Notes: generated by a model from the sequence alone, not told the origin. A stretch of 64,000 bases of DNA from an uncultured Myxococcales bacterium (GCA_937910235.1 CALENB010000330.1:2030-66029); one strand, 5' to 3'; numbered from the stretch's first letter, positions 10,982 to 57,807 are shown. Numbers and translations are program-made.

Positions 10982-11599
10982 ATGGCCGCTGAAAAAGTCG
11001 CCAAGCAGCGCCCACCGATTGGGCCGCGGATCCGTGCGGTGGTTGGCCTTGGTAACCCAGGGTCGAAGTATGCCGGCACGCGGCACAACATCGGCTTCCT
11101 CGTGCTCGATGAGCTCGTGAGGCGGCACGGGCTGTCGTGGCAATCGAAGTTCAAGGGTCGCTGGAGCAAGTGGCACCGCCCAAACGGTGACGCTGTCCTG
11201 CTGCAGCCCGAGACCTTCATGAACCTGAGCGGCGAGAGTGTTCAACCCATGAGCGCGTTTTTTCGGGTCGCGCCGCCGGAGATCCTCGTCGTTCACGACG
11301 AGCTCGACCTGCCATTCGGCGAGTTGAGATTGAAGGTCGGCGGGGGCCACGCCGGTCACAACGGGCTGCGCTCGATCGGGCAGCAGCTCGGAGGCGATCA
11401 GCGCTTCGTGCGTCTACGGGTCGGGATCGGTAGGCCGGTGAAGGGGGATGTGGCGAGCTACGTGCTCGGCTCATTCTTGCCGGAAGAGCAGGGCTGGCTC
11501 GGCCAAGTGGTCGATGCCGCGGCGGACGCAGTGGAGCGCGCCCTCAATGACGGGGTGCTCGACGCGATGAACACCGTCAACGGAACTCGTGTGTGTTGA
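10982..11599 (+). CDS. pth: peptidyl-tRNA hydrolase
   Basis: VVGLGNPGSKYAGTRHNIGF and HNGLRS motifs. Confidence 0.9.
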   Translation: MAAEKVAKQRPPIGPRIRAVVGLGNPGSKYAGTRHNIGFLVLDELVRRHGLSWQSKFKGRWSKWHRPNGDAVLLQPETFMNLSGESVQPMSAFFRVAPPEILVVHDELDLPFGELRLKVGGGHAGHNGLRSIGQQLGGDQRFVRLRVGIGRPVKGDVASYVLGSFLPEEQGWLGQVVDAAADAVERALNDGVLDAMNTVNGTRVC

Positions 11600-11800
11600 G
11601 GTCAGTCAAAGTTAACTTTGGCGACTCCCACCACCGCGACGGCGCCAACTGGCGTCAGGCGTATCACGCCGAGGACAGCTCTTCAGTGAGCAACGCTCAT
11701 CTTGAGCCGTGTCCCCGGTCGCGCCGCTCCTCGCTATGTGCATGGTGCACGCTAGCGAACGCAGCACAGTCGCTGCGGAACCATGAGGAGGATCACGATT

Positions 11801-12280
11801 ATGATCATGGGTCGTCTATACGAGACCGTCCTTATCGCCAAGCCGGATTTCGATCCGGAGGGCTTTGAGAAGTTGCACACGCGACTGCTCAAAACCATCG
11901 GCGATGAGGGTGGCCTTGAGCTAAAGCTGGTTGACTGGGGGCGCCGCCGACTGGCGTACCCGATCGACGGGCATCGCAAGGGTAATTACTTCTACTTCGG
12001 CTACATCGCGTCGCCGGTGTGTCTCACAGAGATCCACCGACAGCTGCGGCTGAGCCAAGAAGTCATCCGCTTCCAGTCCATCACGTTGAGCGGTTCGAAG
12101 CCCATGGGTGCTTTCGACATCGAGAAAGAGCGTGAGAAGGTCATCGGGCTCACCCCCGATCCTCAGGACGAAGAAGAGTTTGGTCGTCGCGAGCGAAGCG
12201 ACTACCGACGTGATGATGATGACGGTGACGATCGCGACGATCGTGACGATCGTGACGACCGCGACATGGGGGACATGTAA
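11801..12280 (+). CDS. rpsF: 30S ribosomal protein S6 with acidic DRDD-repeat C-terminal tail
   Basis: [16 protein letters not shown] matches S6 N-terminus. GAGGAGG SD 8 nt upstream of ATG 11801. C-terminal [10 protein letters not shown] tail encoded by 9-bp repeats. Confidence 0.9.
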
Positions 12281-12528
12281 TGAAGCCCGAAATGCGCCGT
12301 CGCCGGAGCTTTGGTCGCCGTAAGGTGTGCCCGTTCTGTGCCGACAAGTCGTTATACATCGACTACAAAACCCCGAGCATGCTCAAGCGTTTCATCACGG
12401 AACGTGGCCGCATTGTGCCTCGTCGCATCAGCGGCGTTTGCGCGCAGCATCAACGTAACCTGCAGGTGTCCGTCAAACGCGCCCGCATGGTGGCGCTGAT
12501 GCCGTACTCAACCACCGGTATCGATTGA
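12280..12528 (+). CDS. rpsR: 30S ribosomal protein S18
   Basis: [15 protein letters not shown]...YIDYK S18 signature. Start overlaps rpsF stop (TAATGA). Confidence 0.9.
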
Positions 12529-12539
12529 GGGGGACTATC

Positions 12540-13067
12540 ATGAAGGTCATTCTTCGAGAGAAGGTGCCGAACCTGGGCAACATTGGCGACGTCGTCAACG
12601 TCGCCAACGGGTACGGCCGAAATTATCTGCTACCGCGCAAATTCGCCCTCATGGCGAACGACCGCAACGTCAAGCAGCTTCAGCACCAGCAGCGGATGAT
12701 GGGCAAACGCCTCGCCCTTGCCAAAGCTGACGCAGCGATGATCGCTGACCGCATGAGGGGGCAACGCCTCGTCGTGAAGAAGCACGCCGGCGAAGAGGGT
12801 AAACTCTTCGGTTCGGTGACACCGCGGGAGATCGTCGACCTGCTCGGCGACCGTGGGTTCACCGTTGATCGCCGCGATCTCGACATCAAGGAGCCGATCA
12901 AGAGCATCGGCACCTTTGAGGTTGATTGTTCCTTGCACGCTGACGTGAAGAGCACCTTCTTCGTCATCGTCGAGGCACTCGAGACCGAGGCGGACGACGC
13001 GCCCGCGATCAGCGCACCAGCTGCCGATGACTCGATCGAGTACATCGAAGGCTACGACGTGTTCTGA
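12540..13067 (+). CDS. rplI: 50S ribosomal protein L9
   Basis: MKVILREKVPNLGNIGDVVNVANGYGRNYLLP L9 N-domain. Confidence 0.9.
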   Translation: MKVILREKVPNLGNIGDVVNVANGYGRNYLLPRKFALMANDRNVKQLQHQQRMMGKRLALAKADAAMIADRMRGQRLVVKKHAGEEGKLFGSVTPREIVDLLGDRGFTVDRRDLDIKEPIKSIGTFEVDCSLHADVKSTFFVIVEALETEADDAPAISAPAADDSIEYIEGYDVF

Positions 13068-31306: not shown

Positions 31307-33205
31307 CTACAGGTCGATGCGGGTCGCGTTGAAGTCACCCTTGAACGGCTTGCCGGGCGTTCCCGAGACGATGGTGCCAGTCCAGATCCCGTCGATGATG
31401 CGATCCACCCGCAGGTCGCCGATCCAATCCTGCCCTGGCCCCATGATCGGCTTGTCGTCTTCGAGCGTCGCCGTGCCCTGCAGCATCAGGTTCGAGTCGA
31501 TCTTCAACCCGCTGAGCAGCTGCTCGACCGGCAGCACGAGCAGCGACACCGCGCTGTCGCAGACCCCCTTCACCGTCGACTCCTTCAGGCCGAGCTTGCC
31601 CAGGATCGAGCTGCCAATGCCCTTTGCGATGCCGGCGCAGTTCACCAGTTTGCTCATCGCGCCCGAGAAGCTGGTCTCACCGGTGATCTTTTTCAGCACC
31701 ACGTGGGTCAACACGTACATGATCAGCTTGCCGTAGTTCAGCTTGATCGTGCTCGCGTCGATCGTCAGCTTCGTCTGCCCGCTGATCGTGCCGGTGAGCG
31801 TGCCGGCCAGCACATCGAGCGGGAAGTTCGGGTCGTTGATGTTTTGCTGCATGTCGAACGTCGCGCACGTGGCGTAGTCCTTCTTGGTCTCGTCGCAGCC
31901 AACCTTGCCGCAGGTCTCATAGCCGGGCGTGCCCTTCTTGCAGCCCAGCTTCCAGTAGATGTTCACGCCGGTGAAGTTCATGTCGCCCTTGATGAAGAAA
32001 TCGTTGGAGACCTTGAAGATCTTCAATATCCCAAGCATCTCCAGCTTCTTCACGATCTGCAGCACGTCCTGACCGATGCCAAAGAAGTCCTGCAACCACT
32101 TCGGCGAGCTGTTGAGCAGCCAGTCGGTCACCACCTTCGCCAGCTGCTTCTCGAACAGGGAGAACGCGACATCGACGATGATCGACGGCAGGAACTGTTT
32201 GATGAGGTTCTTGACCTGACTGATGATGAACGCGCCGGGATCGTAGAAGATCTGCACCGCGGTATCGAGGATCTGTCCCAGCTGGCCGGGGATCGCGCCG
32301 GTGAAATCGAAGTGGTTCACCATGTCGTACGGGCCAGCGGCTTGCAGCGCTAGCGTGTTGACCGAGACCGTGACGTTCGTGGTCTGCTTGTCGAGGACCA
32401 GCACGCCATCGGCACATCCGGCCGCCGCGAGGTGATTCTTGGCGTCCTTGGCGATGAGGTAGATGCCGTACTTCTTGTTGGCTGGCAGGTCGTCAAACGT
32501 TGGTTTGTCGGCCAAAAAGCTGCTCTTGCTGCCGATGAACCCAGCAGGCGGGTAGATCGCTTTGAACGACGCGCAGGTGAAGGGCATCGGCATGAGCCGC
32601 ACCGTCACTTGGCCGATCTGCAGCTGGTTGTCGTAGTTCATCGTCACCTGGATGCTGCCTTTCGGCAGGTTGGTGACGGTGATGTCGAACAGCACGGACT
32701 CGGCGCCCTCGCAGCTGATCTTGACCTTGTAGGTCTGCACTGGCCCCTTGTTGGCGCGGAACACGCTGCCGGTGAGCCCCTTGTTGTCGGTGCCGGTCAT
32801 CATCGAGTCGAACGTGCCTGGGCCGTTGTTCGGGTTCTCGACGATCTCGTAGAAGACGGCGACGCCGGACGCTGGCGCGCCGAGGCTGTAGTCGATGACC
32901 TTGACGTTAACGGGGAGCAAGCCGGTCGGTGCCAGGACCTGAGGCTGCTGCGTGTTGAGCAGCACGATGATCTCGCGCTTGGTCTCGACGTCCTGTGCGT
33001 CGCCCGCGTCGGCGTCGGCCCCAGCGGCGTTGCCGTCGACGCCGCCGCCCACTGTGATCCCGTCTTGGCCGATGAAGCCGACGTTGATGTCATCGGTCGC
33101 GTCGGCACCGACCACGGTGCCGTTCACGAACTCGGTGCCGCACGAGGCGAGCCCGAAGGTCAGCAGAACAACTGTGGCGACGACTCGGAGCGAAAGTGGG
33201 TACAT
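31307..33205 (-). CDS. large secreted lipoprotein (632 aa), function unknown
   Basis: MYPLSLRVVATVVLLTFGLASCGTEF lipoprotein signal. Balanced composition (N,K,F,I,Y) unlike antisense ORF 31082..32353. Confidence 0.6.
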   Translation of the reverse strand: MYPLSLRVVATVVLLTFGLASCGTEFVNGTVVGADATDDINVGFIGQDGITVGGGVDGNAAGADADAGDAQDVETKREIIVLLNTQQPQVLAPTGLLPVNVKVIDYSLGAPASGVAVFYEIVENPNNGPGTFDSMMTGTDNKGLTGSVFRANKGPVQTYKVKISCEGAESVLFDITVTNLPKGSIQVTMNYDNQLQIGQVTVRLMPMPFTCASFKAIYPPAGFIGSKSSFLADKPTFDDLPANKKYGIYLIAKDAKNHLAAAGCADGVLVLDKQTTNVTVSVNTLALQAAGPYDMVNHFDFTGAIPGQLGQILDTAVQIFYDPGAFIISQVKNLIKQFLPSIIVDVAFSLFEKQLAKVVTDWLLNSSPKWLQDFFGIGQDVLQIVKKLEMLGILKIFKVSNDFFIKGDMNFTGVNIYWKLGCKKGTPGYETCGKVGCDETKKDYATCATFDMQQNINDPNFPLDVLAGTLTGTISGQTKLTIDASTIKLNYGKLIMYVLTHVVLKKITGETSFSGAMSKLVNCAGIAKGIGSSILGKLGLKESTVKGVCDSAVSLLVLPVEQLLSGLKIDSNLMLQGTATLEDDKPIMGPGQDWIGDLRVDRIIDGIWTGTIVSGTPGKPFKGDFNATRIDL

Positions 33206-39422: not shown

Positions 39423-41483
39423 GTGGCGCGGCTGACCCTGCACATCGCGCTGCATCTGCATGAGCCCGCTGGGACGCCGGTTTCTCGGGTCGCGCAAGCC
39501 GTCGCCGCGTGCTACGCGCCGCTCATCGATCTGCTCGAAGCGCATCCGGTTGTGGACGTCGCGATGCACGTCGGCGGGTATCTGCTCGAATGGATTGAGC
39601 GCCACGATCGCGCCCTCGGCGACCGTCTCGCGTCGCTGGTGAGCGCGGGCGAGGTGGAGATCATCGGCGGCGGGTTCTACTCCCCTGTGTTGGCCTTGCT
39701 GCTGTGGCGCGACGCGATCGGTCAGCTCGAGATGACGTCTGGCTACCTTGAGCGCCGCACCGGCGTGCGACCGACGGGTGCGTGGCTCATCGAGCAGGTC
39801 TGGATGCCGCGGATGGCGGAGATCCTCAGTGATGCCGGGGTGCAGTGGACCTTGATCGATCAGCGGGCGCTGCGCTCAGCTGGCGTCGAGGGCGAGATCT
39901 CGGGCTGGTATGTCACCGAACACGCCGCGCGGCCCCTCGCCGTGTTTCCAGTCGACGTCGATCTGCGTGATCGCGCCCTGCAGGACGGTCCCGACGAGCT
40001 GATCGACTATCTGCGCGCGCGGCTCGACCAACATGGCGGAGATCTCACGCTCACGTGGGCGGGCGACGTGCAGCGGCTCGTCGCAGGCGCTGGTCGTGGT
40101 CTGGCGTGGCTCGACCGGTTGTTCACACGCGCTGCGACCGAGTCATCTTGGCTGCACGTCGTGCCGCCCTCTCACAGTCTGACCGCGTCGCCGGCGCGAG
40201 GCCGTGTCTACCTGCCCGACAGCCTGCATCCCGACCTCGTTGAGCTCACGCTGCAGCCGTCTCAGGTGCCGACCTGGCGGGCTCGGCGCGCGCTCGATGA
40301 TGCGTGGCTGCCCGGCAGCGTTTGGCAGGCGTTCCTAGCGCGCTACGGCGAGGCCGACCGGCTGCACAAACGCATGATCGAGGCCGCGCGGCGTTTTGCT
40401 GCTGTCGAGCGGGTCATGCGAAACGGCGGGTTTCGCGCCATGAGCCAGCTCACGCGGCCGCGTCGGCTGCTGTATCGCGGCCAGACCGGCGCGGCGTACG
40501 GCCACGGCCACGCCGCTGGGATTCATGATCCGCACCTCCGCGCGGACGCCTACCGCAACTTGATCGCCGCCGAAGTGGCTTGTGATGAGCTCGTCGCCGA
40601 CCCGGCCGACCTCGCAGAAGACCGCATCGAGGTTGGCCTGCGGGATCTCTTCGCCGACATGACGACCAGCGTGCTGCTGCGCTCGCGCCACCTACGAGTG
40701 GTGGTTCAGCCGAGCCGCGGCGGCGCGATCGTCGGCCTGGAGCATATCGCCAGCTCGTCCGCGCTGCACGACGTGCTGACCCGCCGCGCCGAGGCGTATC
40801 ACGCGCGCGGAGAGCAGCCCATCGACGGCCACGACCGGGCTATGTTCCACGACCGTCTTCTCACTCCAGACGCAGACACAGACGGCTGGATGACGGACAC
40901 GGCGGAGCTTGGTGACCTGATGACGCGGTCCTACCGCTTGTTGTCGGTGGAAGACGAGGGTTGGGGCCCTGACGCGCGCGTAACGGTGCATCTCGCCGGA
41001 GACGGCACGCTCCGCCTCGCTGGCCAGGAGATCGCCGTCGCGATCCTCAAGCGCACCCGTGTCCATGCCAACCGCGCCGACGTTGAGGTGTCATGGTCGG
41101 TCGAGTTCGACACGCCCCTGCCGGCGCCCTGTGATTTCGGCGTCGAGTGCAACCTGAGCAGCCTAGGGGGCACCGCGACGGCGACGCCGATCAGCGTGCA
41201 TCCCGATCGGCGCGCGTGCGGCGTGGCCACGGTCTCGTACGAAAGCGCCGGTGTGCGGGTCGAGTTGCGGCCCAGCGGCGAGCTCGTCCGGCTCAGCCAC
41301 GCCGCGATCATCACGGTCGCGCGGCCCGTCGGAGGCGTCTGCGAGCCCCGTTTCCAGGGGTTTTCGCTGCTGTTTCGTCGGTCGCTTGCCGCCGGCACAG
41401 CCGCGTTCACCTGCGGCCTCACGCTCAGCGCGGTCGGTGGTTCAGCGCCGGCGCAAGCCCCGATCGGAATCGGATCGCGCTAG
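39423..41483 (+). CDS. glycoside hydrolase family 57-like (alpha-amylase / 4-alpha-glucanotransferase type)
   Basis: N-terminal LHIALHLHEP...HVGGYL...WLIEQVWMP resembles the GH57 catalytic barrel. ~686 aa. Confidence 0.55.
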   Translation: MARLTLHIALHLHEPAGTPVSRVAQAVAACYAPLIDLLEAHPVVDVAMHVGGYLLEWIERHDRALGDRLASLVSAGEVEIIGGGFYSPVLALLLWRDAIGQLEMTSGYLERRTGVRPTGAWLIEQVWMPRMAEILSDAGVQWTLIDQRALRSAGVEGEISGWYVTEHAARPLAVFPVDVDLRDRALQDGPDELIDYLRARLDQHGGDLTLTWAGDVQRLVAGAGRGLAWLDRLFTRAATESSWLHVVPPSHSLTASPARGRVYLPDSLHPDLVELTLQPSQVPTWRARRALDDAWLPGSVWQAFLARYGEADRLHKRMIEAARRFAAVERVMRNGGFRAMSQLTRPRRLLYRGQTGAAYGHGHAAGIHDPHLRADAYRNLIAAEVACDELVADPADLAEDRIEVGLRDLFADMTTSVLLRSRHLRVVVQPSRGGAIVGLEHIASSSALHDVLTRRAEAYHARGEQPIDGHDRAMFHDRLLTPDADTDGWMTDTAELGDLMTRSYRLLSVEDEGWGPDARVTVHLAGDGTLRLAGQEIAVAILKRTRVHANRADVEVSWSVEFDTPLPAPCDFGVECNLSSLGGTATATPISVHPDRRACGVATVSYESAGVRVELRPSGELVRLSHAAIITVARPVGGVCEPRFQGFSLLFRRSLAAGTAAFTCGLTLSAVGGSAPAQAPIGIGSR

Positions 41484-42109
41484 TCGTTGGCGCGACCTGC
41501 GAGCGCGCCGAGCACCGCTTTCACAGCCTTATCCGCCTCGGCGATGTTCTCTTCGTCGCCGCCCAGCCAGACCCGGCCAAAAGCGCCGAATGACTGGAAC
41601 TCCAGGACCTTGATCGTCGCGTGTTTCTCCGCCTCGTTGGCCGCCAGCAGCGCGTAGCCGGCCGGGTGCACCTCCAGCAGGTACAACGCGTCCCCCTCCG
41701 CGATCATGTCGCCGTGGCGCATGCGATTGATGATCATGGCGTGGTGGCCAGCGATACCCGTGATGATCTGCGCGTTCGTGATCTTGGGCTTGAGGCGATC
41801 CTCGACGGCGATGCCATAGAAATCCAGAATCGCGCCGCCGGCCGCCTCGATCTGGCCCTTGTCCGCCGAGTGGACCTCCAACATGCCGAACGCGCGCTCT
41901 ACGATCAGCATGCCAGGCGTCACGTCCGTGCTCTTGAGCACCGTGTCAGTGACGCGATTGATGCTCATCCCGGGGGCGACCTCAACCAGCAGCGCCGACT
42001 GCTTCTCCAGCGGCAGGTAGCCGCCCGCCACAGTCGCGACAAACGCCGCGGTCTGCGGCTGGAGACTGTCGATGACGGTGTAGGTACGCAGCTCGATTTC
42101 TTGGGACAT
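41480..42109 (-). CDS. tandem BMC-domain microcompartment shell protein (BMC-T, CcmP/CsoS1D type)
   Basis: ATG at 42109 with AGGAGG SD. 209 aa with ELRTYTVIDSLQPQ, LKPKI, LAANEAEK, FGRVWLGGDE blocks, two permuted BMC repeats. Confidence 0.7.
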   Translation of the reverse strand: MSQEIELRTYTVIDSLQPQTAAFVATVAGGYLPLEKQSALLVEVAPGMSINRVTDTVLKSTDVTPGMLIVERAFGMLEVHSADKGQIEAAGGAILDFYGIAVEDRLKPKITNAQIITGIAGHHAMIINRMRHGDMIAEGDALYLLEVHPAGYALLAANEAEKHATIKVLEFQSFGAFGRVWLGGDEENIAEADKAVKAVLGALAGRAND

Positions 42110-48452: not shown

Positions 48453-48980
48453 TCACTTGAATGGGTTCACGCCGCAGACGGCGGTGCCGAGGCTGACGTA
48501 GTCGGTGCTGTTCTTGATGCAGTGCGGCATCTCCGGGTTCCAGGCCGCGCAGACGGCGTCCGACGAGCAGTTGCGACCGCAGACTTTGTAGGGCTCAGGG
48601 CTTGTGCGGGCGGTGTTTCCGCTGCTCGTGGACTTCTCAAAAGCCGATGAGAACTCGCCGTCGGTGGCGCAGGCTGCGGAGGTCGGGCTGTCTCCGCCCG
48701 TGCAGTTGTTGTTCTTGGTGCAGAACTTGATGGCGTTGTTATACCCGGTCAGAAACCCGCCGGTGAAGCAGTAGCCGTACATGCAGTCGGTGTGAGCGAC
48801 GCATGTCTTGCCGTTCTCGAGCCCTGTCGTGGCCTTGATCGGTGGGCACTGCCACCAGAGTCCGGTCCGAGTCGAGCCGCCGGCGCCGCTGGTCGGCGTG
48901 GTCTCGCAGCCCGTGAGTGTCCCGCTGAGCGCCCCGCTCAGCGCAATGGCGAGCGTGAGGGCGAGTGTGGCGGCGTTGGT
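48453..48980 (-). CDS. small Cys-rich secreted lipoprotein, compositionally atypical (lower GC)
   Basis: ATG at 48980 gives MYRTNAATLALTLAIALSGALSGTLTGC (lipobox). ~16 Cys, with N/K/T/F/Y-rich composition and local GC ~60%. Confidence 0.5.
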   Translation of the reverse strand, partial: TNAATLALTLAIALSGALSGTLTGCETTPTSGAGGSTRTGLWWQCPPIKATTGLENGKTCVAHTDCMYGYCFTGGFLTGYNNAIKFCTKNNNCTGGDSPTSAACATDGEFSSAFEKSTSSGNTARTSPEPYKVCGRNCSSDAVCAAWNPEMPHCIKNSTDYVSLGTAVCGVNPFK

Positions 48981-49083
48981 TCGGTACATGGCGGGCTCCG
49001 GAGGCTGGACCGTGAGGGGCAGGGTGACGATAGTGTAGAGACCTCCGCACGTCCTGCACAGGTGGCGGGGTGGATTGTGTGGC

Positions 49084-50511
49084 TCACGGCCCACACAGGT
49101 CGCTGCAGCTTGTGCCCCGTCGCTCGCAGGACCAGCCGCGGCGGTCTCTGTGCGCCAGCGTCCACGTACCGACGCCGGGCGCGAGTCGCCAGATGTCACC
49201 CAGGGCACCGCATTCGCCGCGGCCGCCGAAGAGCCACAGCGCGGCGTCGCCGGCCGCGAGCAGGCCATGGCTGCGCCGCGGTGGGCTCAGCGGATCCAAC
49301 GCGGTGAAGCCGGCCGGGGCCAAACAGGGATCTGCCAGCGGGGTGACGACGCCGCCAGACGTGGCGCCCTTGCCGAGGTCGCCCGCGCGGATGCGCTGCC
49401 ACTTGCCGACGCTGGCGAGCGGCATTCGCCAGAGATCGTTGCGAAACCCCTGAGCGCTGTCATCGCGGCCGCCAAACAGCCACAGGTCCGTCGCCGTCGT
49501 CGCCAGCGCCGCGCCGCGCCGGGGCGTCGGCCGGTTCCCCGACTCCGGCAGGCGTGTCCAGGCCATGGTCTGTGTATTGAACACCCACAGGTCGCCAAGC
49601 AGCCCGCCGTGGCTGCGGCCGCCAAACAGCAACAGCTGCTTGCCGCCGTTGAGGGCGATGAGGCCATGCTCGGCTCGCGCGACAGGCGGTTGAGTCGCGA
49701 TCGGGGGCAGCTCCCAAGCCGAAAGATCAAGCCGATAGCGCCGCAAGTCGGGCAGCAGCACGCCGACGCCCGTCGTGCCGCTCGCGTCGCCACCGTGCAC
49801 CCAGACGCTCGGCGGCGAGGTCTGCGTGGCGATGGCGGCGTGGTGCCGCGCCGGGATGCTCTGGCTCGTCGCCAAGCTCCACGCCCCAACGCTGCCGCCG
49901 AAGCGCCACAGATCGCCGCGCACGACCCAGGGCCCCGCGGTCGTGTCTCGCTGCCAACCGCCAACGAGCCACGCGCTGCCCAGGCCGACGGTGGACGCTG
50001 CCCCGCTCCGGCTCGGCGGGGTGCCGGGCGCAGCAGAGCGCCAACCGTCACACGGCGCCCAACTGCCACCTTGTTTGGTCGATCGGCCCATCTCAGTGCA
50101 GCGCCCAGCGGTCGCGACGTCGCCGCCGTGCACCAGCAAGCGTCCCATGAGCCAACCGCCCGCCGGCGAGGCCCGGGGCAGCAGCGCGCTGGCGCGTGGG
50201 GTCGCCGTGCTGGTCTTGTCGCAGCCATCCGCGGCGCCGCCCGCGTCGGTCAAGGCGTTCACGTCTGACCACCAAGGCACGTTTTTGCAGAGCTGGTCGA
50301 TGCAGACCGTGTTGGGCGGGCACGCGCCATCGAGGCCACAAGCCCGCTCCTGGCCCGTGCAGCCGGCGGCGCAGACCATCAGGCAGATCGCCGCGACCAC
50401 CCTCACCGCGACCACCCTCACCGCGGCTACACCGCTCGCGCTGCCCGCAGATGGCGATGAAATCAAGGTTCTCGGGCCGCGCTCGGCGTGATGCGATCGC
50501 GATCGGGTCAT
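49084..50511 (-). CDS. Kelch-repeat beta-propeller lipoprotein
   Basis: Repeated LWLFGG / DLW Kelch blades. N-terminal Cys-rich lipoprotein signal. ATG at 50511 overlaps stop of the upstream giant gene (ATGA). Confidence 0.65.
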   Translation of the reverse strand: MTRSRSHHAERGPRTLISSPSAGSASGVAAVRVVAVRVVAAICLMVCAAGCTGQERACGLDGACPPNTVCIDQLCKNVPWWSDVNALTDAGGAADGCDKTSTATPRASALLPRASPAGGWLMGRLLVHGGDVATAGRCTEMGRSTKQGGSWAPCDGWRSAAPGTPPSRSGAASTVGLGSAWLVGGWQRDTTAGPWVVRGDLWRFGGSVGAWSLATSQSIPARHHAAIATQTSPPSVWVHGGDASGTTGVGVLLPDLRRYRLDLSAWELPPIATQPPVARAEHGLIALNGGKQLLLFGGRSHGGLLGDLWVFNTQTMAWTRLPESGNRPTPRRGAALATTATDLWLFGGRDDSAQGFRNDLWRMPLASVGKWQRIRAGDLGKGATSGGVVTPLADPCLAPAGFTALDPLSPPRRSHGLLAAGDAALWLFGGRGECGALGDIWRLAPGVGTWTLAHRDRRGWSCERRGTSCSDLCGP

Positions 50512-53500
50512 GGCGAGCACGCGCAGCCAATGCCCTTCGGTTCGGCCGTGATGCGAATCTCATCGATCCAAACGCCGCGCGTGGCCACGGGCGCCGCGGC
50601 GACGCCGACCCACACCGCGGACAGCTGCACCACGTCGCCATCGAGCGTCACATCAAACGGCAGATCCAGCGCCACCATCGTCGCGGTGGAGCCGCACAGG
50701 GTGCCGCCCGCCAACACTTGCCCCTCCCGCTTCACACGTAGCGCTCCCTCGCTGCACACGACCCCGTCCTTATCGAGGCGGGCCTTCAACCGCACGCGCC
50801 ACGCCCCCGCGCTCAGCGCCAACGGCGGAAAACGGGCTTCATAGGTCCCGGACGCCAGCGGGCAATGCAGACTCCGCGTGCCGTCGCTCGCGACCGCGTC
50901 GACCTGACTTGCCCACGTCGCTCCGGCGCTCACCGGCGGCGCGTCGGCCAGCATCCGCCACCCGGGCGCTGTGGTCGCCTCGAAGCTCTCGTCGAACGCC
51001 TGCGGCACCAAACAGCGGCTCGCGGCCTTGCAGGTGCCCGTCTCACACCAACCCGCGGTGCAGCTCTGGCCGGGGGTGCACACAAGCGGCGTGTGTTTGC
51101 ACTGCGCCGACGCGATCACGCAGCTGTCTTGGGTGCACGCGAAGCCGTCGTCGCAGTCGATGTCCGCCACGCAGCACGTCGGCCCGGTGGTTGGCGTGCC
51201 CTTGCAGCTCCCCAAGCCATCACACACGTCCGTCGTCGTGCACGTCGACCCGTCGTCGCAGGCCGTGCCAGGCTGTTTGAAGGCGTTGGCGCAGCCCTTC
51301 CCTTTGTCGCAGAGGTCGAGCGTGCAGAACTTGCCGTCGTCGCAGTCCGGCGCCGTTCCGGCCGCGCACCCACCCACGCCGCACAGCTCGTCGCCGTTGC
51401 ACGGATCGCCGTCAGCGCAGCTGCCCGTCACCGTCACCAAGTGCTGGCATCCGCTCGTCGGCAGGCAATAATCCAACGTGCACGGCTTACTGTCATCGCA
51501 TCCCAAGTAGGCCGCACCCTTGCACAGTCCACTCGCGCAGGCGTCGCCAACCGTGCATTGCGAGCCGTCGCTGCAGCTCACACCCGACACGGCCTTGTGG
51601 CTGCAGCTGCCTTCCGGTTTGGCGCAGCCGTCGAGGGTGCATGGGTTGAAATCGTTGCAGTCGCCGTTGAGCTTGCAGCAGTTGCTGATCGCCTTGCCTT
51701 TGCAGAGCCCCTGTTCGCAGACCGCGTCGGACGTACAGCCCGTCGGTGTGACGCAGGGGCCGGTGTGAAACGTGATCTTGCACAACCCCGACGTCAGGTC
51801 GCAGCTGTCATCGGTGCAGGTGTTGCCGTCATCGCAGTTGATCGAGACGCCGGCCTGGCAGCTGCCCCCGGTGCAGATGTCGCCCAGTGTGCACGCGTCG
51901 CCGTCGTCGCAGCCTGTCTTTTCGGTCTTTTCGCTGCTGTGCACACACGCGCCGGTGCCGTCGCAGCTGTCGACCGTGCATGGCTGCTTGTCATCGCAGT
52001 TCTTTGGCGTGCCACTGCATCCGCCGCCGCTGCAGCTGTCCGCGGTCGTGCACGCGTCGCCGTCCGAGCACAGGCCGCTGGTCGGAAGGTAGCGACATCC
52101 TAACTCCACCTTGCACGTGTCGATGGTGCAAACGTTGAGATCATCGCATTGCAGCGCTGTGCCCACGCACGATCCGGACGCGCAGCCGTCGCTCAACGTG
52201 CACGCGTTGCCGTCGTCGCAGCTGCCGGAGTGACTCGTGTGCGCGCAGCCTTTCAGCGGGTTACAGCTGTCCAGCGTGCAGGGGTTGGTGTCTTCACACT
52301 TGAGCGGCACGCCGACCACGCAACCGTCGTTCGCGCAAGCGCTGAAGCCGTTGCACACGTCCCCGTCATCGCAGTTCGCCCCTTCGGGCAGCACCGGGTG
52401 GCTGCACTTCGCCGTCCCCGCCACGACGTCACAGATGTCCAACGTGCACAGATCCTTGTCGTTGCATGCCTGCCAGAGCCCGCCCGTGCACAACCCCAAG
52501 TCGCAGCTCTCTCCGATCGTGCACGGGTTGCCGTCACTGCAGGCGGCGGAACCGACCCCCGCGTTCTTGCAGGCGCCGCCCTGGCAGAGGTCAGCGGTAC
52601 ACGGGTTGCCGTCGTCGCAGTTCCCATCGGCCGTGCAGCAGCTTGGCAGGGGGATGCCGATGCACAGCTTGGCGAAGCAGGTGTCCTTGGTCGTGCAGGG
52701 GTTGCCGTCGTTGCAGACGCCATCGTGCGCGGCATGGACACAGGCGCCGCTCGCTGAGTCGCAGTCGTCACTCGTGCACGGGTTGCCGTCGTCGCAGACC
52801 ACCGTGCTGTGGCCCTTGCAGCCGCCATCGAGGCACGTGCCCGCTTGGGCGCAGAGGTCCGTGGGTTTGCACGCGGAGCCCACCGGCAACGCCACCGACA
52901 GGCAGCCCTTGTCCGCGGCGCAGGGGTCGAGCGTGCAGGGGTTGCCGTCGTCACAAATCGCCGCGGTGCCGCCCTTGCAGACCCCTTTCGCGCAGCTCTC
53001 GCCCGTCGTGCACGGGTCGCCGTCGTCGCACGTGCCGATATGCGGCAAGGAGCGACATCCGCCAGGCAGCTCACACAGGTCCACGGTGCACGGGTTGCCG
53101 TCGTTGCAGCGCTTGGCGGTCGGCACATGTTCACATCCAGTCCCGGCGACACAAGCGTCGACCGTGCAGGGGACGGCGTCATCACAAATCGGGGCTTCAT
53201 CGGTCTTGCCATCGCAGTCGTTGTCGACGCCATCACAGCTCTTCTCGACGGTCTCATAGTTGTCGATGCCGCCGAGGTTGCAGACCCATTGTCCGGCGAC
53301 GCAGCGCGACGTCGGCGCGCCCAAACAGACGCCGCTCACCCCGCACACTTCGCCGGCTTTGCCGTCCAGATCCTCGTCTGTCTTGCCGTCGCAATCGTTG
53401 TCGAGGCGGTCGCACCGAAGCTCGCCATCAGGCTCGTAATCCGGCACCCCTAGCACCTCGCACTTGACCTTGCCGACCGCGCCCAAGCAGGTCGCACGCG

Positions 53501-54038
53501 GCGAGTGGCCGGCGCAGACGCCGAGATCGCAGAACGCCGCGGCCAGCGCCTCCTTGCTCGCCGGCACCGAGTCGACCTTGTCATCCGGATCGGCGAGGCA
53601 GTCGCCGTCTTCATCATGTGTGTCGTGCTCAAGCGCGTCGGGTTTGCCGTCGCCATCGCGATCGCGGGGCGTCGCCGGGTTTGGGCCGACCTCGAGCTTG
53701 TCGTCTAAGCCATCGTTATCTGAGTCGCGCGATGCCGGGTTGGTGCCCGCCGCGCGCTCGGCCACCGCGTCCAACCCGTCGCCGTCCACGTCGACGTCCG
53801 GCGCGGCGCATCGGGCCGGCCGCCATGGACCAGTCTCGCAAAAACGCGACGCACAGGCGCTATCCGCTGAGCACGGCGTGCCGTTCGAGAGGCTCTGGTC
53901 GGCGCTGCAGGACAGCACCAGCGACGCGACGAGCAGCGGGCCGAGTCGGGCGCGGGGCGATGGCTGGCCAGCCCAATAGCCTCCCGCACACGCCCACGCG
54001 CGTTGAATCCTTGCGTGCGCTCGCCGGGCTCCCGGCAT
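50508..54038 (-). CDS. giant secreted Cys-rich repeat protein with TSP3-like Ca-binding Asp repeats (1176 aa)
   Basis: Signal peptide from ATG 54038. D-x-D-x-D-G repeats. More than 30 modules of C-x-D-G-N-P-C-T-x-D-x-C. Confidence 0.7.
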   Translation of the reverse strand: MPGARRAHARIQRAWACAGGYWAGQPSPRARLGPLLVASLVLSCSADQSLSNGTPCSADSACASRFCETGPWRPARCAAPDVDVDGDGLDAVAERAAGTNPASRDSDNDGLDDKLEVGPNPATPRDRDGDGKPDALEHDTHDEDGDCLADPDDKVDSVPASKEALAAAFCDLGVCAGHSPRATCLGAVGKVKCEVLGVPDYEPDGELRCDRLDNDCDGKTDEDLDGKAGEVCGVSGVCLGAPTSRCVAGQWVCNLGGIDNYETVEKSCDGVDNDCDGKTDEAPICDDAVPCTVDACVAGTGCEHVPTAKRCNDGNPCTVDLCELPGGCRSLPHIGTCDDGDPCTTGESCAKGVCKGGTAAICDDGNPCTLDPCAADKGCLSVALPVGSACKPTDLCAQAGTCLDGGCKGHSTVVCDDGNPCTSDDCDSASGACVHAAHDGVCNDGNPCTTKDTCFAKLCIGIPLPSCCTADGNCDDGNPCTADLCQGGACKNAGVGSAACSDGNPCTIGESCDLGLCTGGLWQACNDKDLCTLDICDVVAGTAKCSHPVLPEGANCDDGDVCNGFSACANDGCVVGVPLKCEDTNPCTLDSCNPLKGCAHTSHSGSCDDGNACTLSDGCASGSCVGTALQCDDLNVCTIDTCKVELGCRYLPTSGLCSDGDACTTADSCSGGGCSGTPKNCDDKQPCTVDSCDGTGACVHSSEKTEKTGCDDGDACTLGDICTGGSCQAGVSINCDDGNTCTDDSCDLTSGLCKITFHTGPCVTPTGCTSDAVCEQGLCKGKAISNCCKLNGDCNDFNPCTLDGCAKPEGSCSHKAVSGVSCSDGSQCTVGDACASGLCKGAAYLGCDDSKPCTLDYCLPTSGCQHLVTVTGSCADGDPCNGDELCGVGGCAAGTAPDCDDGKFCTLDLCDKGKGCANAFKQPGTACDDGSTCTTTDVCDGLGSCKGTPTTGPTCCVADIDCDDGFACTQDSCVIASAQCKHTPLVCTPGQSCTAGWCETGTCKAASRCLVPQAFDESFEATTAPGWRMLADAPPVSAGATWASQVDAVASDGTRSLHCPLASGTYEARFPPLALSAGAWRVRLKARLDKDGVVCSEGALRVKREGQVLAGGTLCGSTATMVALDLPFDVTLDGDVVQLSAVWVGVAAAPVATRGVWIDEIRITAEPKGIGCACSP

Positions 54039-54081: not shown

Positions 54082-54966
54082 CTAGCGATCTTGCAGGGCG
54101 TAGTACACACCGAGCACCTTTCGCACGTAGCTGTCCGTCGCGGCGTAGGGCGTGCCACCGCGCCGTTTCACCCGCGTCGACCCGGCGTGGTACGCGCTCA
54201 GCACCTTCACCAGATCGCCGCGAAAGCGGTTGGCGAGGATCCGCAAGAACCGCGCGCCGCCGAGGATGCTCTGGTTCGGATCCCGGAGGTCCTTCACGCC
54301 CATCGCCTTGGCCGTGTCCGGCAGCAGCTGCATCAGGCCAACGGCGCCGGCGTGGGAGACAACCGTTGGATTGTAGCCGGACTCCACTTTCATGACGGCG
54401 CGAACCAAGTTCTCCGGCAGCTTGTAGCGCGCCGCGGCGGCCCGCACTTCTGCGGCGAAGGGGGCGCGATCTTCGGCGGTCACCTCAGGAATCCGGGTCG
54501 GTGCGGGCGTCGTGGAGTACCGGCCCCGAACGTCCCGCTGCGGCGGTTGCGGTTGCGGCAGCGTCGGAGCGCCGCCGTTCGGCCCTGGCGTGTGTCGATA
54601 CACCACCGGAGCGTGCGCGGATGCGGTCGGCGTGGTCTCCGGCGCCGGGATCTCGGCGCGCGCCACCCGCAGCGGCGCGCCGAGCCGTCGCAGCCGCAGC
54701 GTCTTGCGCCAGTCGCACTGATCGGGCTCAAGGCTCGTGTAGAATGGCTTGCAGTTCTTGAGGACCTGGTCGGCTCGTTCCTTGCTCCCGATCGCCTTGC
54801 GCAAGTTGATGCCGCTGGCGATTGCGCCGCGACAATTGAACATGGCGGTGCGGCACAGCGGCGCGGCCAGCGCGGTGTTGGTCGCGGTCATGACGCCGAC
54901 CGTCGCCAGCGCCAGCGCCAGTCGTCGCGTCGCGCTCGGTTGCGGGAATCTCAAGTGCGGGCGCAT
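54082..54966 (-). CDS. lytic transglycosylase (SLT domain) with signal peptide
   Basis: SLT catalytic block VSHAGAVGLMQLLPDTAKAMGV. ATG at 54966. Confidence 0.8.
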   Translation of the reverse strand: MRPHLRFPQPSATRRLALALATVGVMTATNTALAAPLCRTAMFNCRGAIASGINLRKAIGSKERADQVLKNCKPFYTSLEPDQCDWRKTLRLRRLGAPLRVARAEIPAPETTPTASAHAPVVYRHTPGPNGGAPTLPQPQPPQRDVRGRYSTTPAPTRIPEVTAEDRAPFAAEVRAAAARYKLPENLVRAVMKVESGYNPTVVSHAGAVGLMQLLPDTAKAMGVKDLRDPNQSILGGARFLRILANRFRGDLVKVLSAYHAGSTRVKRRGGTPYAATDSYVRKVLGVYYALQDR

Positions 54967-55093: not shown

Positions 55094-56686
55094 GTGCCGT
55101 CGATCTCCGTCACTCTGGTCGGCTGTGGCCGCTGGGGCCGCAACCTCGCCCGCAACTTGCACCAACTCGGCGCCCTCGCCGGGATCGTCGAAGTCGATGC
55201 AGGCGCCCGAGCTGACGTCGCCGCCCGCTGGCCCGCGGTCCCGTGCTGGCATGGCATCGACAGCGTCCCACGATCGCACGCCGTCGTGATCGCCGCCCCC
55301 GCCGTTGAACACGCTCGCCTCGCCGCGCATTTCCTGCGCCTGGGTCAGCACGTGTTTGTCGAGAAACCGCTCGCCCTCGACATCAGCGAAGGCCGCGCCC
55401 TCGTTTCTTTGGCGGAGACCCAAGGCTGCGTGCTGATGGTCGGACATCTTTTGCACTATCACCCCGCGGTGGAAGCCCTGGCCGGTCTGGTGCGCGACGG
55501 TAGCCTGGGCCGCCTGCGCTACGTCTACTCAAATCGGTTGAATCTCGGCCGTTTCCGCACCGAAGAGAACAGCCTGTGGTCCTTTGCCCCGCACGACGTG
55601 GCGGTCCTGCTGCGCCTCGTCGGTTCGCTGCCCGACCGGGTCACAGCCGTCGGCGGCTACTTCCTGCATCCCACCGTCGCTGACACAACGATGACGACGT
55701 TGTCTTGGGCGCACGGCGTTCAAGCGCACATCTACGTGTCGTGGCTGCACCCATTCAAAGAGCAGCGCCTCGTCGTGGTCGGTCAAGACGCCATGGCCGT
55801 GTTCGATGACCGCGCCGCCGAGCACAAGCTGGTCCTGTATCGCCACGGCGTGGAGTGGATCGGCGGCCGTCCGCAACCGATCGCGGCGCTCGCGGAGCCA
55901 GTCGCGCTGCGGGCGGTCGAACCCCTGGCCGAGGAGATGTCGGTCTTCCTCCGCGCTTGTGCCGACCCAACCGCGCGGCCGATCTCGGATGGCGCGGAGG
56001 GCGTCGCCGTGCTCACCGTGCTCGACGCCGCCGAGCGGTCCATGGGCGGCGGCGGCGCTCCGGTGACGCTGACCCCGGCGGACCATCGCGCGCCGACGGC
56101 GCCGCAAGTGCATCCCTCCGCGGAGATCGGTGAGGGCGCGGAGATCGGCGAAGGAACCAAGGTCTGGCACTTTGCCCACGTCATGGCTGGCGCGCGGATC
56201 GGCCGCGATTGTGTGCTGGGCCAAAATGCGTTTGTGCAGTCCGGCGCGGTCCTGGGCGATCGCGTGCGTGTGCAAAACAACGTCTCGATCTACGACGGGG
56301 TTGTGCTGGAAGACGACGTCTTCTGCGGGCCGTCCTGCGTCTTCACCAACGTCGTGCGCCCGCGTTCGCACGTCAGCCGCAAAGACGAGTTCGCGCGCAC
56401 CGTCGTCGGCCGCGGCGCCACGATCGGCGCCAACGCGACGGTGGTCTGTGGTCACCAGATCGGCGCGTACGCCTTCATCGCGGCGGGCGCTGTGGTCAGC
56501 CGCGAGGTGCCGCCGCACGCCATGGTGGTCGGGGTGCCCGCACGGGTCGTTGGCTGGGTGTGCAGCTGCGGCGAGCGCCTCGCGTGGCCGATCGCGCCGA
56601 TTGAAGGCAGCACCAACACGTGTCACCGCTGCGCCGCCACGTGGCGCTGGCAAGGCGGCGTGGTCTCCGCCAAGCAGGACGTATGA
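55094..56686 (+). CDS. fusion of Gfo/Idh/MocA sugar-nucleotide dehydrogenase (WbpB-like) and left-handed beta-helix N-acetyltransferase (WbpD/PglD-like)
   Basis: VTLVGCGRWGRNLARN Rossmann N-terminus. Hexapeptide repeats EIGEGAEIGEGTKVW... in the C-terminal third. GTG start with GGAG 6 nt upstream. Confidence 0.7.
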   Translation: MPSISVTLVGCGRWGRNLARNLHQLGALAGIVEVDAGARADVAARWPAVPCWHGIDSVPRSHAVVIAAPAVEHARLAAHFLRLGQHVFVEKPLALDISEGRALVSLAETQGCVLMVGHLLHYHPAVEALAGLVRDGSLGRLRYVYSNRLNLGRFRTEENSLWSFAPHDVAVLLRLVGSLPDRVTAVGGYFLHPTVADTTMTTLSWAHGVQAHIYVSWLHPFKEQRLVVVGQDAMAVFDDRAAEHKLVLYRHGVEWIGGRPQPIAALAEPVALRAVEPLAEEMSVFLRACADPTARPISDGAEGVAVLTVLDAAERSMGGGGAPVTLTPADHRAPTAPQVHPSAEIGEGAEIGEGTKVWHFAHVMAGARIGRDCVLGQNAFVQSGAVLGDRVRVQNNVSIYDGVVLEDDVFCGPSCVFTNVVRPRSHVSRKDEFARTVVGRGATIGANATVVCGHQIGAYAFIAAGAVVSREVPPHAMVVGVPARVVGWVCSCGERLAWPIAPIEGSTNTCHRCAATWRWQGGVVSAKQDV

Positions 56687-57807
56687 GCGACACCACCTCC
56701 AGCGTGCCCTTTGTTGACCTGAAGCGGCTGCAAGCCCCGCTGCGCGCGGACCTTGAGGCGGCTTTTTCGCGCGTGCTCGATCACGGCATTTACGTCTTGG
56801 GGCCCGAGGTGCAGGCCTTTGAGCAGCAGCTGAGCGGGTACCTGGGCGCCGCCGACACGGCTGGCGTGTCCTGCGGAACCGACGCGCTCCTCGCCGCGTT
56901 TTTGGCCTTGGGCCTCCCAGCCGGTGGCGAGATTCTGATGACGCCACTGTCGTTCATCGCGTCGGCCAGCTCCGTGCTGCGGGCCGGGTTGCGGCCTGTG
57001 TTTGTCGATCTGCCAGACATCGGCTTTCATCCGAGCCCGCAGGCCTTCGAGGACGCGTGGACGCCCGCCACGGTCGGCGTGCTCGCCGTGCATCTCTTCG
57101 GCGAGCCGGTGCCGATGGCCGATGTCGCAGCGCTCTGCGCCCGGCGCGGCGGGGTTCTGGTTGAGGACTGCGCCCAGGCGATCGGCGCGCGAACGCCGTC
57201 GGGTGCGTCAGTCGGCCTCGCCGGCGCCGCGGGCACGCTCAGCTTCTTTCCAGCCAAAAACTTGGGCGCGCTCGGTGATGGCGGCGCAGTGTTTGGCAGC
57301 GACCCAGCGCTCATCGCGCACGTCCGGCGCATTCGGCAGCATGGTCGCCGAGCCCGCGACGCGTACGATGAGCTCGGCGGCAACTTCCGCCTCGACGCGC
57401 TCCAGGCCGCCATGCTGCGTGTGCTGCTGCCGGCCCTCGACGACTGGACTCAGGCGCGCGCCGCCAACGCAGCGAGCTATCTCGCGGCCTTTGCGCCGTT
57501 GGAGCGAGCAGGCCAGCTGCAGCTGCCCCAGCCCTTGGCGGGTCACGCTTGGAATCAGTTCTGCATCCGCACGCCGCATCGGGCGAACCTCGTCGAAGCG
57601 CTGACCGCAGCGGGTATTGGCCACGCCGTCTACTACACGCGCGCGCTGCATCAGCAGGCCGCGCTCGCCGCCGCCGTCCCCGCGGAACACTTGCCGAACG
57701 CCGAGCGTTGTTGCGCTGAGGTGCTGGCCATCCCCGTGTATCCTGGCCTCACCGAAGCCGAGCGTAATCGCGTGATCGAGGTGGTGACACAGACGTTGCC
57801 ATGCTAG
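56683..57807 (+). CDS. DegT/DnrJ/EryC1/StrS family PLP aminotransferase (WbpE-like)
   Basis: Fold-type I sugar aminotransferase blocks (FFPAKNLGALGDGGAV). ATGA overlap with upstream fusion gene. Confidence 0.85.
   Translation: MSDTTSSVPFVDLKRLQAPLRADLEAAFSRVLDHGIYVLGPEVQAFEQQLSGYLGAADTAGVSCGTDALLAAFLALGLPAGGEILMTPLSFIASASSVLRAGLRPVFVDLPDIGFHPSPQAFEDAWTPATVGVLAVHLFGEPVPMADVAALCARRGGVLVEDCAQAIGARTPSGASVGLAGAAGTLSFFPAKNLGALGDGGAVFGSDPALIAHVRRIRQHGRRARDAYDELGGNFRLDALQAAMLRVLLPALDDWTQARAANAASYLAAFAPLERAGQLQLPQPLAGHAWNQFCIRTPHRANLVEALTAAGIGHAVYYTRALHQQAALAAAVPAEHLPNAERCCAEVLAIPVYPGLTEAERNRVIEVVTQTLPC

Follow-up and report, generated by a model that had tools for sequence, protein, structure and literature searches.

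A conserved gene cluster for three predicted disulfide-rich lipoproteins, one with the outline of a stalked receptor, in uncultured aquatic Myxococcota

We analyzed a window of 64,000 nucleotides (nt) from an uncultured Myxococcales bacterium (GCA_937910235.1, CALENB010000330.1:2030-66029), identical to metagenome contigs in ENA, whose minus strand carries five consecutive genes between 46.9 and 55.0 kb. They encode an SLT-domain lytic transglycosylase, three predicted lipoproteins that we call g1, g2 and g3, and a CNNM/CorC-family membrane protein (Table 1). An earlier note, made from the sequence of this window, had described the three middle genes with the transglycosylase gene upstream; our open reading frames (ORFs) and the domain match of the transglycosylase confirmed this arrangement, as well as the length given for g1. 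The SLT gene is the first of the same-strand run and diverges from a sugar-nucleotide gene pair.

The SLT and g1 genes are separated by 43 nt, g1 and g2 overlap by 4 nt, and the gaps that follow measure 94 nt between g2 and g3 and 219 nt between g3 and CNNM; the gap of 220 bp that had been placed before g3 is thus the one on its other side. A strong Shine-Dalgarno sequence, GGGAGG, lies 4-5 nt 5' of the g1 ATG. Just as the note had it, the start codon of g2 and the stop codon of g1 share bases in the sequence ATGA, while g3 has a GGAG-type Shine-Dalgarno sequence of its own 6 nt before its ATG. Translational coupling, proposed for the whole module, is therefore supported for g1 and g2, whose overlap is conserved in relatives, but not for g3. 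The description of g3 as a Cys-rich lipoprotein was also right, but the gene starts at 48989 and not, as the stated length of 175 residues implied, three codons later at 48980; the protein is thus 178 residues long, and it has 13 cysteines rather than about 16.

Table 1. Features of the five-gene run, with coordinates in the 64,000-nt window
Feature	Coordinates	Strand	Evidence
SLT-domain lytic transglycosylase, 294 aa, signal peptide	54082..54966	-	PF01464, E=6e-27
g1, predicted lipoprotein, 1176 aa	50508..54038	-	PF00526, E=1.5e-51; predicted lipobox
g1 sub-part: last CTDC unit and C-terminal jelly-roll/CBM-like domain	50511..51116	-	alignment, model, fold search
g2, predicted Kelch lipoprotein, 475 aa	49084..50511	-	eight Kelch-type Pfam families; lipobox
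g3, predicted lipoprotein, 178 aa	48453..48989	-	lipobox; Cys-rich; no Pfam/NCBIfam family
CNNM/CorC-family membrane protein, 435 aa	46926..48233	-	PF01595, PF00571, PF03471

The g1 protein is built, in this order, from a lipobox (LVLSC followed by S), a small Cys knot, TSP3-like motifs, MopE-type motifs, a CTDC array and a C-terminal beta-sandwich. We took as evidence for a lipoprotein a positively charged n-region, a hydrophobic h-region and an [LVIA]-x-[GAS]-C lipobox, conserved in orthologues. The g1 lipobox follows a typical n/h-region in 24 of 24 orthologues, the window protein included; the earlier note had called g1 secreted, but the protein is predicted to be lipid-anchored and not freely secreted. 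Downstream of the knot, three to four motifs of the form D-x-D-x-D-G-x-x-D-x-x-E are visible. They correspond to the TSP3-like repeats of the note; PF18884 (TSP3_bac) scored 7.7 bits (E=4.4) on the window g1, below the 25-bit threshold, and a PF18884 match was recorded for five orthologues. The MopE-type motif C-D-x-x-D-N-D-C-D-G-x-T-D-E occurs twice, and PF11617 matched two stretches with 28.2 bits (E=2.2e-6), barely above its cut-off of 27 bits.

The rest of the stalk-like region consists of repeats that belong to Pfam family PF00526 (Dicty_CTDC), with 172.2 bits for the whole protein against a gathering threshold of 27 bits and nine stretches that pass individually. We counted 24 clear units and two to three degenerate ones, and not the more than 30 reported, with a period of 25-26 residues between residues ~285 and ~985. 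Fourteen units are of the type C-x-D-x3-C-T-x-D-x-C and ten have a last spacer of four residues, the two types mostly alternating. The array holds 110 cysteines in 701 residues and the whole protein 139. The scans with domain hidden Markov models (HMMs) that the note had suggested thus found PF00526 in place of the TIGR02232-like repeat that it expected: no NCBIfam family matched g1 at E<=0.01 in release 20.0, whose inclusion of TIGR02232 and TIGR04201 was not checked. A sequence comparison of g1 with the PDB also gave no match.

The last ~170 residues of g1 (~1010-1176) matched no Pfam or carbohydrate-binding module (CBM) model. When this domain was modelled with AlphaFold2 (AF2) from an alignment of 19 orthologues, the result was an all-beta sandwich with a pLDDT of 87 and a pTM of 0.83. 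A Foldseek search of the model against the PDB returned 81 matches at E<=1e-3, the best of them the CBM4-2 structure 1k42 (E=3e-6); the others include the MAM domains of meprin and neuropilin, the gingipain K1/K3 adhesin domains, CBM61, CBM6, CBM22 and the ligand-binding domains of Eph receptors. We propose the C-terminal beta-sandwich as a putative ligand-binding tip. No other part of g1 varies as much between species as this one, with 33-63% identity compared with 45-74% for the whole protein. The domain bears extra conserved cysteines, and all orthologues end in an invariant C-x-C located 2-6 residues before the stop codon (...GIGCACSP in the window, 50511..50534, minus strand), which could tether the tail by disulfides, bind metal or cross-link g1 molecules. 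The note had missed this CBM/MAM-like domain, the better candidate for the "tip" that it assigned to g3, and also that all three proteins carry lipoboxes.

The identification of g2 as a Kelch lipoprotein was borne out. Its best match was PF24681 (E=3.7e-36), seven further Kelch models matched as well, and six h-h-x-h-G-G blade signatures outline a six-blade Kelch beta-propeller. The lipobox (CAAGC followed by T) is conserved in seven of seven orthologues, and the N-terminal Cys-knot motif ERACGLDGxCPPNTVCIDxLCKNVPWW is conserved too. The nearest solved relatives, KLHDC2/3/10 and LZTR1, are protein-binding scaffolds and not enzymes. The overlap of the g1 and g2 genes was kept in four of five relatives, that is, in five of six loci when the window is counted; it measures 4 nt in the window and in locus L033, and 19 nt in L004, L008 and L010.

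The g3 lipobox (LTGC followed by E) is present in all full-length homologues. A flexible Gly/Ser/Thr linker follows it and leads to a domain of ~130 residues with 12 conserved cysteines, enough for six disulfides, and 39 invariant alignment columns. We found no Pfam or NCBIfam match for g3 and no match of its model in the PDB at E<=0.001. Fourteen homologues share 47-99% identity, all of them metagenomic or from metagenome-assembled genomes (MAGs) labelled "Myxococcales bacterium" or "Deltaproteobacteria bacterium", and a sensitive HMM search of 1.84 billion representatives retrieved only 58 clusters at E<=1e-3. In a few of these clusters a g3-like domain forms the C-terminal module of a larger protein; what precedes it is three Somatomedin-B domains in P0154, a GSDH beta-propeller in P0156 and CTDC repeats in P0160. 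The domain is thus portable between extracellular proteins and has no Pfam model. Matches of homologues to the toxin family Toxin_29 (PF08116) reached 18-20 bits against a cut-off of 25 and were rejected.

A second, longer paralogue of g3 exists elsewhere in the same genomes. Our scan of the GTDB species representatives for g3 yielded 16 loci in nine MAGs, and seven of the nine hold both the cluster orthologue and the paralogue (loci L027-L031, L016-L019, L021-L024 and L026). The sequenced examples of the paralogue (P0011, P0013 and P0014) are 254-266 residues long, with an additional Cys motif near the N-terminus and an acidic linker of Gly, Ser and Asp. On contigs with called genes (L027-L030) the paralogue is a stand-alone gene, transcribed divergently from the ATP synthase b/b'/delta genes.

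Next, we compared the cluster across related genomes. The order SLT-g1-g2-g3-CNNM, with a PEGA gene on the opposite strand after it, was kept in every locus long enough to be judged (L004, L008, L010, L012, L014, L015, L025, L033 and L034, and in part L032). The SLT gene lies upstream of the g1 orthologue in nine of nine loci that reach that far, at -1 to 116 nt, and wherever the sequence is long enough CNNM comes next after the g3 orthologue, at a distance of 85-219 nt. Beyond the cluster, the outer flank holds the TgpA/DUF58/BMC-like/GH57 genes in most loci; in L034 it consists of genes for ribosomal L25, Pth, S6, S18 and L9, and in L006 of a methyltransferase gene and an AhpC gene. Identity to the window proteins across loci was 43-77% for g3, 54-74% for CNNM, 45-74% for g1, 49-72% for SLT and 32-70% for g2, and g3 equalled or exceeded g1 and g2 in nearly every locus. 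By this comparison g3 is among the better-conserved genes of the cluster and the Kelch protein g2 the fastest evolving. Moreover, g3 shows 100% identity across the three metagenome contigs with this locus (L001-L003), and a cluster of 99% identity (P0001) differs from it in one residue.

The base composition of g3 was in line with this conservation. The note had singled out g3 and the gap before it as the only clearly lower-GC coding stretch of the window, compatible with the recent acquisition or cassette exchange of a toxin, adhesin or effector-like tip. We measured a GC content of 0.646 for g3, compared with a window mean of 0.666 and with 0.723 for g2; this places g3 at the 29th percentile of same-length windows, and at the 17th when the downstream gap is added. 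At least eight other stretches are lower in GC. The minimum of the window, 0.56-0.58 at 31.2-32.9 kb, coincides with an ORF of 632 residues (31307..33205, minus strand) with a lipobox (LASC followed by G) and no Pfam match, a stronger compositional outlier than g3. Another low stretch, at 11.4-13.4 kb (genes 10982..13067, plus strand), holds Pth and the ribosomal proteins S6 and L9, so GC dips also occur in ordinary housekeeping genes of this genome.

At third codon positions, the GC content (GC3) of g3 is 0.869, compared with 0.841 for g1, 0.840 for g2, 0.851 for SLT and 0.842 for CNNM, and at first positions (GC1) it is only 0.46; the dip is therefore due to a Thr/Gly/Ser/Asn/Lys-rich composition and not to foreign codon usage. 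The g3 orthologues behave likewise, with high GC3 and a GC1 of 0.47-0.53 in genomes of 0.57-0.71 overall GC. The GC3 of g3 equals or exceeds that of its neighbours in the window and in four of five relatives; in L008, where the gene call is truncated, it is slightly lower. Taken together, GC3 and the protein identities show ordinary behaviour of g3, as expected under purifying selection. The proposal of recent exchange did not survive this comparison across relatives, in which g3 is syntenic in every related locus examined and keeps the same codon-position pattern. Judged by its presence in all related genomes examined and by its normal codon usage, the cluster is not a horizontally acquired island.

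The CTDC array itself turned out to be widespread. A search with full-length g1 returned 5441 proteins at E<=1e-10 among 8000 candidates scored; ~25 of them are clear orthologues of 1130-1180 residues and the rest are mostly 1400-2050 residues long, with beta-helix/NosD, PKD, S8 peptidase, LTD, FGE-sulfatase or NHL passenger domains. Nearly all are unnamed or "hypothetical" at their source; P0052 is labelled "extracellular matrix protein". The two other CTDC proteins that we saw in their genomic context had no SLT, Kelch or g3 neighbours. CTDC proteins are thus numerous and their passengers and contexts varied, which makes the array a general-purpose extracellular scaffold of these lineages and a family common also outside this gene context. 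What the sequence comparison marks as specific to this locus is the orthologous five-gene arrangement. Our search of the literature on Dicty_CTDC/PF00526 in bacteria brought up no paper on the function of such proteins. Two relatives have an additional CTDC-repeat protein of 930-949 residues between CNNM and PEGA (L008, 10792..13584, minus strand; L009, 3616..6465, minus strand); they are the MAGs NP66 and DMNZ01 (GCA_003452515.1), and the window has no such gene.

Taking together the gene structures, domain identities, tip fold, lipobox conservation, synteny, conservation levels and normal codon usage established above, we favour, with moderate confidence, the explanation that this is a vertically inherited, lineage-specific cluster of uncultured aquatic Myxococcota that supplies three lipid-anchored, disulfide-rich envelope proteins and follows the logic of a stalked receptor. 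All three proteins would be exported and matured through the Sec/Lgt/Lsp/Lol route and would fold with the help of Dsb proteins. They would reside at the outer membrane or the cell surface, since none of them has a Lys at +2, the inner-membrane retention signal in Myxococcus. In g1, the N-terminal lipid anchor would be followed by acidic motifs that may bind Ca2+, and a presumably rigid rod of about 25 disulfide-knotted CTDC repeats would hold the tip away from the membrane. The tip would then bind a glycan or a protein ligand, its fold being usually glycan-binding or adhesive elsewhere. Because the g2 start overlaps the g1 stop, the two proteins are probably produced at a constant ratio. The g2 propeller and the six-disulfide domain of g3 may act as partner or co-receptor lipoproteins, possibly in a physical complex of g1, g2 and g3. 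The g1/g2 overlap and the fusions of g3-like domains to CTDC arrays and to a propeller are consistent with such joint action.

The best precedent for this logic comes from Myxococcus xanthus. In TraA, a PA14 lectin-like domain is joined to a stalk of Cys-rich repeats (TIGR04201) and a MYXO-CTERM anchor, and the traA and traB genes overlap translationally (PMC3325183). The TraA authors noted that its repeats resemble PF00526 in the Dictyostelium proteins PsiA and DicA1 (PMC3325183). A Cys-rich stalk that presents a lectin-like domain, with a translationally overlapping partner gene (PMC3325183), is a precedent that we count in favour of the stalked-receptor explanation. As predicted here, g1 would be, like TraA, a Myxococcota surface protein with a membrane or lipid anchor, a stalk of Cys-rich tandem repeats and a distal lectin-like beta-sandwich, the partner coding sequence overlaps the receptor gene in both, and both have calcium-type motifs. 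Their polarity is mirrored, however, as g1 has its anchor in an N-terminal lipobox and TraA in the C-terminal MYXO-CTERM. The tip of g1 is CBM4/MAM-like and its repeats are PF00526, whereas TraA has PA14 and TIGR04201; the partners here are Kelch and small Cys-rich lipoproteins, whereas TraB is an OmpA-domain protein. Congruently, we found no Pfam match to PA14 in g1 and no PA14 domain among the top 50 fold matches of its C-terminal domain, no hydrophobic segment after the terminal C-x-C as MYXO-CTERM would have, and no OmpA domain in the downstream Kelch, g3 and CNNM genes. Strain-level polymorphism as in TraA was not seen here. We regard TraA/TraB as the closest functional analogue by architecture: the locus may work like TraA/TraB, but it shares none of the TraA membership features that were tested and is not one of them.

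Other known proteins resemble parts of the cluster. The Dictyostelium PF00526 proteins (PsiA/DicA1 with PA14 and CTDC, and those of the spore coat and matrix) have the same repeat family in long, extracellular, disulfide-rich arrays together with a beta-sandwich recognition domain; g1 differs in being bacterial and lipid-anchored, in its accessory domains (TSP3-like, MopE and CBM-like) and in its operon-like run with Kelch and g3 genes. The yeast flocculins Flo1 and Flo5 and other stalked lectin adhesins follow the same logic of an anchor, a repetitive stalk and a distal carbohydrate-binding beta-sandwich, but they have no sequence or family relation to g1, and flocculins use a glycosylphosphatidylinositol (GPI) anchor and a Ser/Thr-rich stalk instead of a lipobox and a Cys-rich one. 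The g1 C-terminal domain has the beta-jelly-roll fold of CBM4, CBM6, CBM22 and CBM61, of MAM domains and of the gingipain "cleaved adhesin" domains as judged by Foldseek, and is set apart from them by an identity of only 10-20%, the lack of a Pfam or CBM model match, the extra conserved cysteines and the terminal C-x-C. Finally, the other giant CTDC proteins (1400-2050 residues) of Myxococcota and Deltaproteobacteria MAGs share the repeat array of g1 and are likewise likely to be extracellular, but they differ in their passenger domains, and their genes lie in unrelated surroundings with no SLT, Kelch or g3 gene.

Several results weigh against the stalked-receptor explanation. The fold match of the g1 tip is at the superfamily level only (TM 0.5-0.69, 10-20% identity) and does not give the class of ligand, and the AF2 model of g3, moderately confident with a pLDDT of 71.7, has no counterpart among known folds. 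Lipoprotein status was judged by motif inspection and not by a dedicated predictor. In L034 the genes were called with a g1-g2 gap of +184 nt. A scan for promoters and terminators gave counts at or below the shuffle expectation, with none in the intergenic gaps, and is uninformative on co-transcription. Furthermore, the surrounding housekeeping genes (ClpP, Sua5, methyltransferase, DegT and PEGA) are equally syntenic. The conserved order alone is therefore no proof of a functional linkage, and the cluster lies in a core chromosomal region and not in an island.

The strongest alternative is that of three independent neighbours: g1, g2 and g3 might be unrelated envelope lipoproteins, adjacent only through the synteny of a young clade and with no shared function or complex. 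The whole block from a 512-residue PEGA protein gene through ClpP, DegT, GFO/hexapeptide, SLT, g1-g3 and CNNM to PEGA is kept, the stand-alone g3 paralogue adjoins ATP-synthase genes and other CTDC proteins have neither a Kelch nor a g3 partner. Against it speak the conserved coding overlap of g1 and g2, the contiguity of the five genes on one strand when the outer flanks change, and the proteins that join a g3-like domain to CTDC repeats or a propeller. We consider it the less expected outcome, though one to be reckoned with.

The stalked-receptor explanation can also be carried further, to an undescribed tri-lipoprotein surface recognition apparatus in which g1 is a mirrored TraA-like stalked lectin, g2 its Kelch partner and g3 a new six-disulfide fold, serving cell-cell, cell-prey or particle/polysaccharide recognition. 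Its components might include the SLT and CNNM proteins, and g3 would found a new domain family reused in Somatomedin-B, CTDC and propeller fusions. In this complete form we regard the proposal as speculative and rather unlikely.

More doubtful still is that g1 is a cross-linked structural component of an extracellular matrix or coat, with g2 and g3 as assembly factors and SLT remodelling peptidoglycan locally. The PF00526 family was named from Dictyostelium proteins (of the spore coat and slime sheath), a bacterial homologue (P0052) bears the matrix label mentioned above, and the 139 cysteines and terminal C-x-C of g1 could give intermolecular disulfides. Dictyostelium spore-coat proteins are Cys-rich and cross-linked (PMC3068167), which we also count for a coat. 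The conserved N-terminal lipid anchor and the single C-terminal domain of binding type, on the other hand, fit an anchored receptor better, and we saw no sign of high copy number or of self-assembly motifs.

The remaining alternative is that g3 and its gap form a low-GC cassette, gained recently or open to exchange, for a toxin, adhesin or effector at the end of a contact-dependent system. The local GC dip relative to g2, the small size and Cys-richness of g3 and the sub-threshold cystine-knot toxin resemblance of its homologues (PF08116) might suggest it, but it is very improbable in view of the high GC3 of g3, its unremarkable GC percentile with a codon-position-1 effect common to orthologues, its synteny in all related genomes, its identity at or above that of g1 and g2 in nearly every locus and its invariance between metagenome copies. 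Pfam and NCBIfam scans of g1-g3 found no toxin, immunity or mobile-element domains and none of the two-partner secretion (TPS) or Rhs type. We likewise rejected a polymorphic toxin or contact-dependent inhibition system, with no type V secretion (T5SS)/TPS, Rhs/YD or PT-type domains and a g3 that does not vary between metagenome contigs. Of the architecture that the earlier note had likened to adhesion or contact-dependent systems without a named match, the extracytoplasmic, disulfide-rich, adhesin-like and unnamed character remains, but not the contact-dependent part.

The constant neighbours SLT and CNNM may or may not be part of the functional unit. The NCBIfam matches of the SLT protein were at the domain level only and all under their cut-offs. 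For the CNNM gene, a link to GldE and gliding was rejected, as TIGR03520 reached 212.8 bits against a cut-off of 376 and indicates a family-level CNNM resemblance only. The g3-CNNM gap contains no terminator-like site and no Rfam element, and an Rfam scan of 45.5-55.5 kb found no RNA element, such as a Mg2+ riboswitch, 5' of CNNM. The pair divergent from SLT (55094..57807, plus strand) encodes a fused GFO_IDH_MocA oxidoreductase/hexapeptide acyltransferase and then a DegT aminotransferase; it is kept beside the cluster in all relatives and resembles a WbpB/WbpD/WbpE-type amino-sugar nucleotide pathway. Farther away, at 41480..42109 (minus strand), lies the gene of a 209-residue protein with a CsoS1D_N domain (precomputed Pfam match) and a weak BMC-domain match (21.2 bits, cut-off 24.5), which may be a microcompartment shell protein. 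It adjoins the GH57 gene and the TgpA/DUF58 pair and is kept in relatives.

Our results have several implications. A GC dip that arises from amino-acid composition, with low GC1 and normal GC3, is not to be read as horizontal acquisition. PF00526 arrays proved to be a very common extracellular scaffold in these bacteria, and g3 defines a small, unannotated disulfide-rich domain. If the stalked-lectin reading of g1 is true, uncultured aquatic lineages would present a CBM/MAM-like tip on a Dictyostelium-type CTDC stalk with a lipobox anchor, and Myxococcota would have, alongside TraA, a second and independently built solution for surface recognition.

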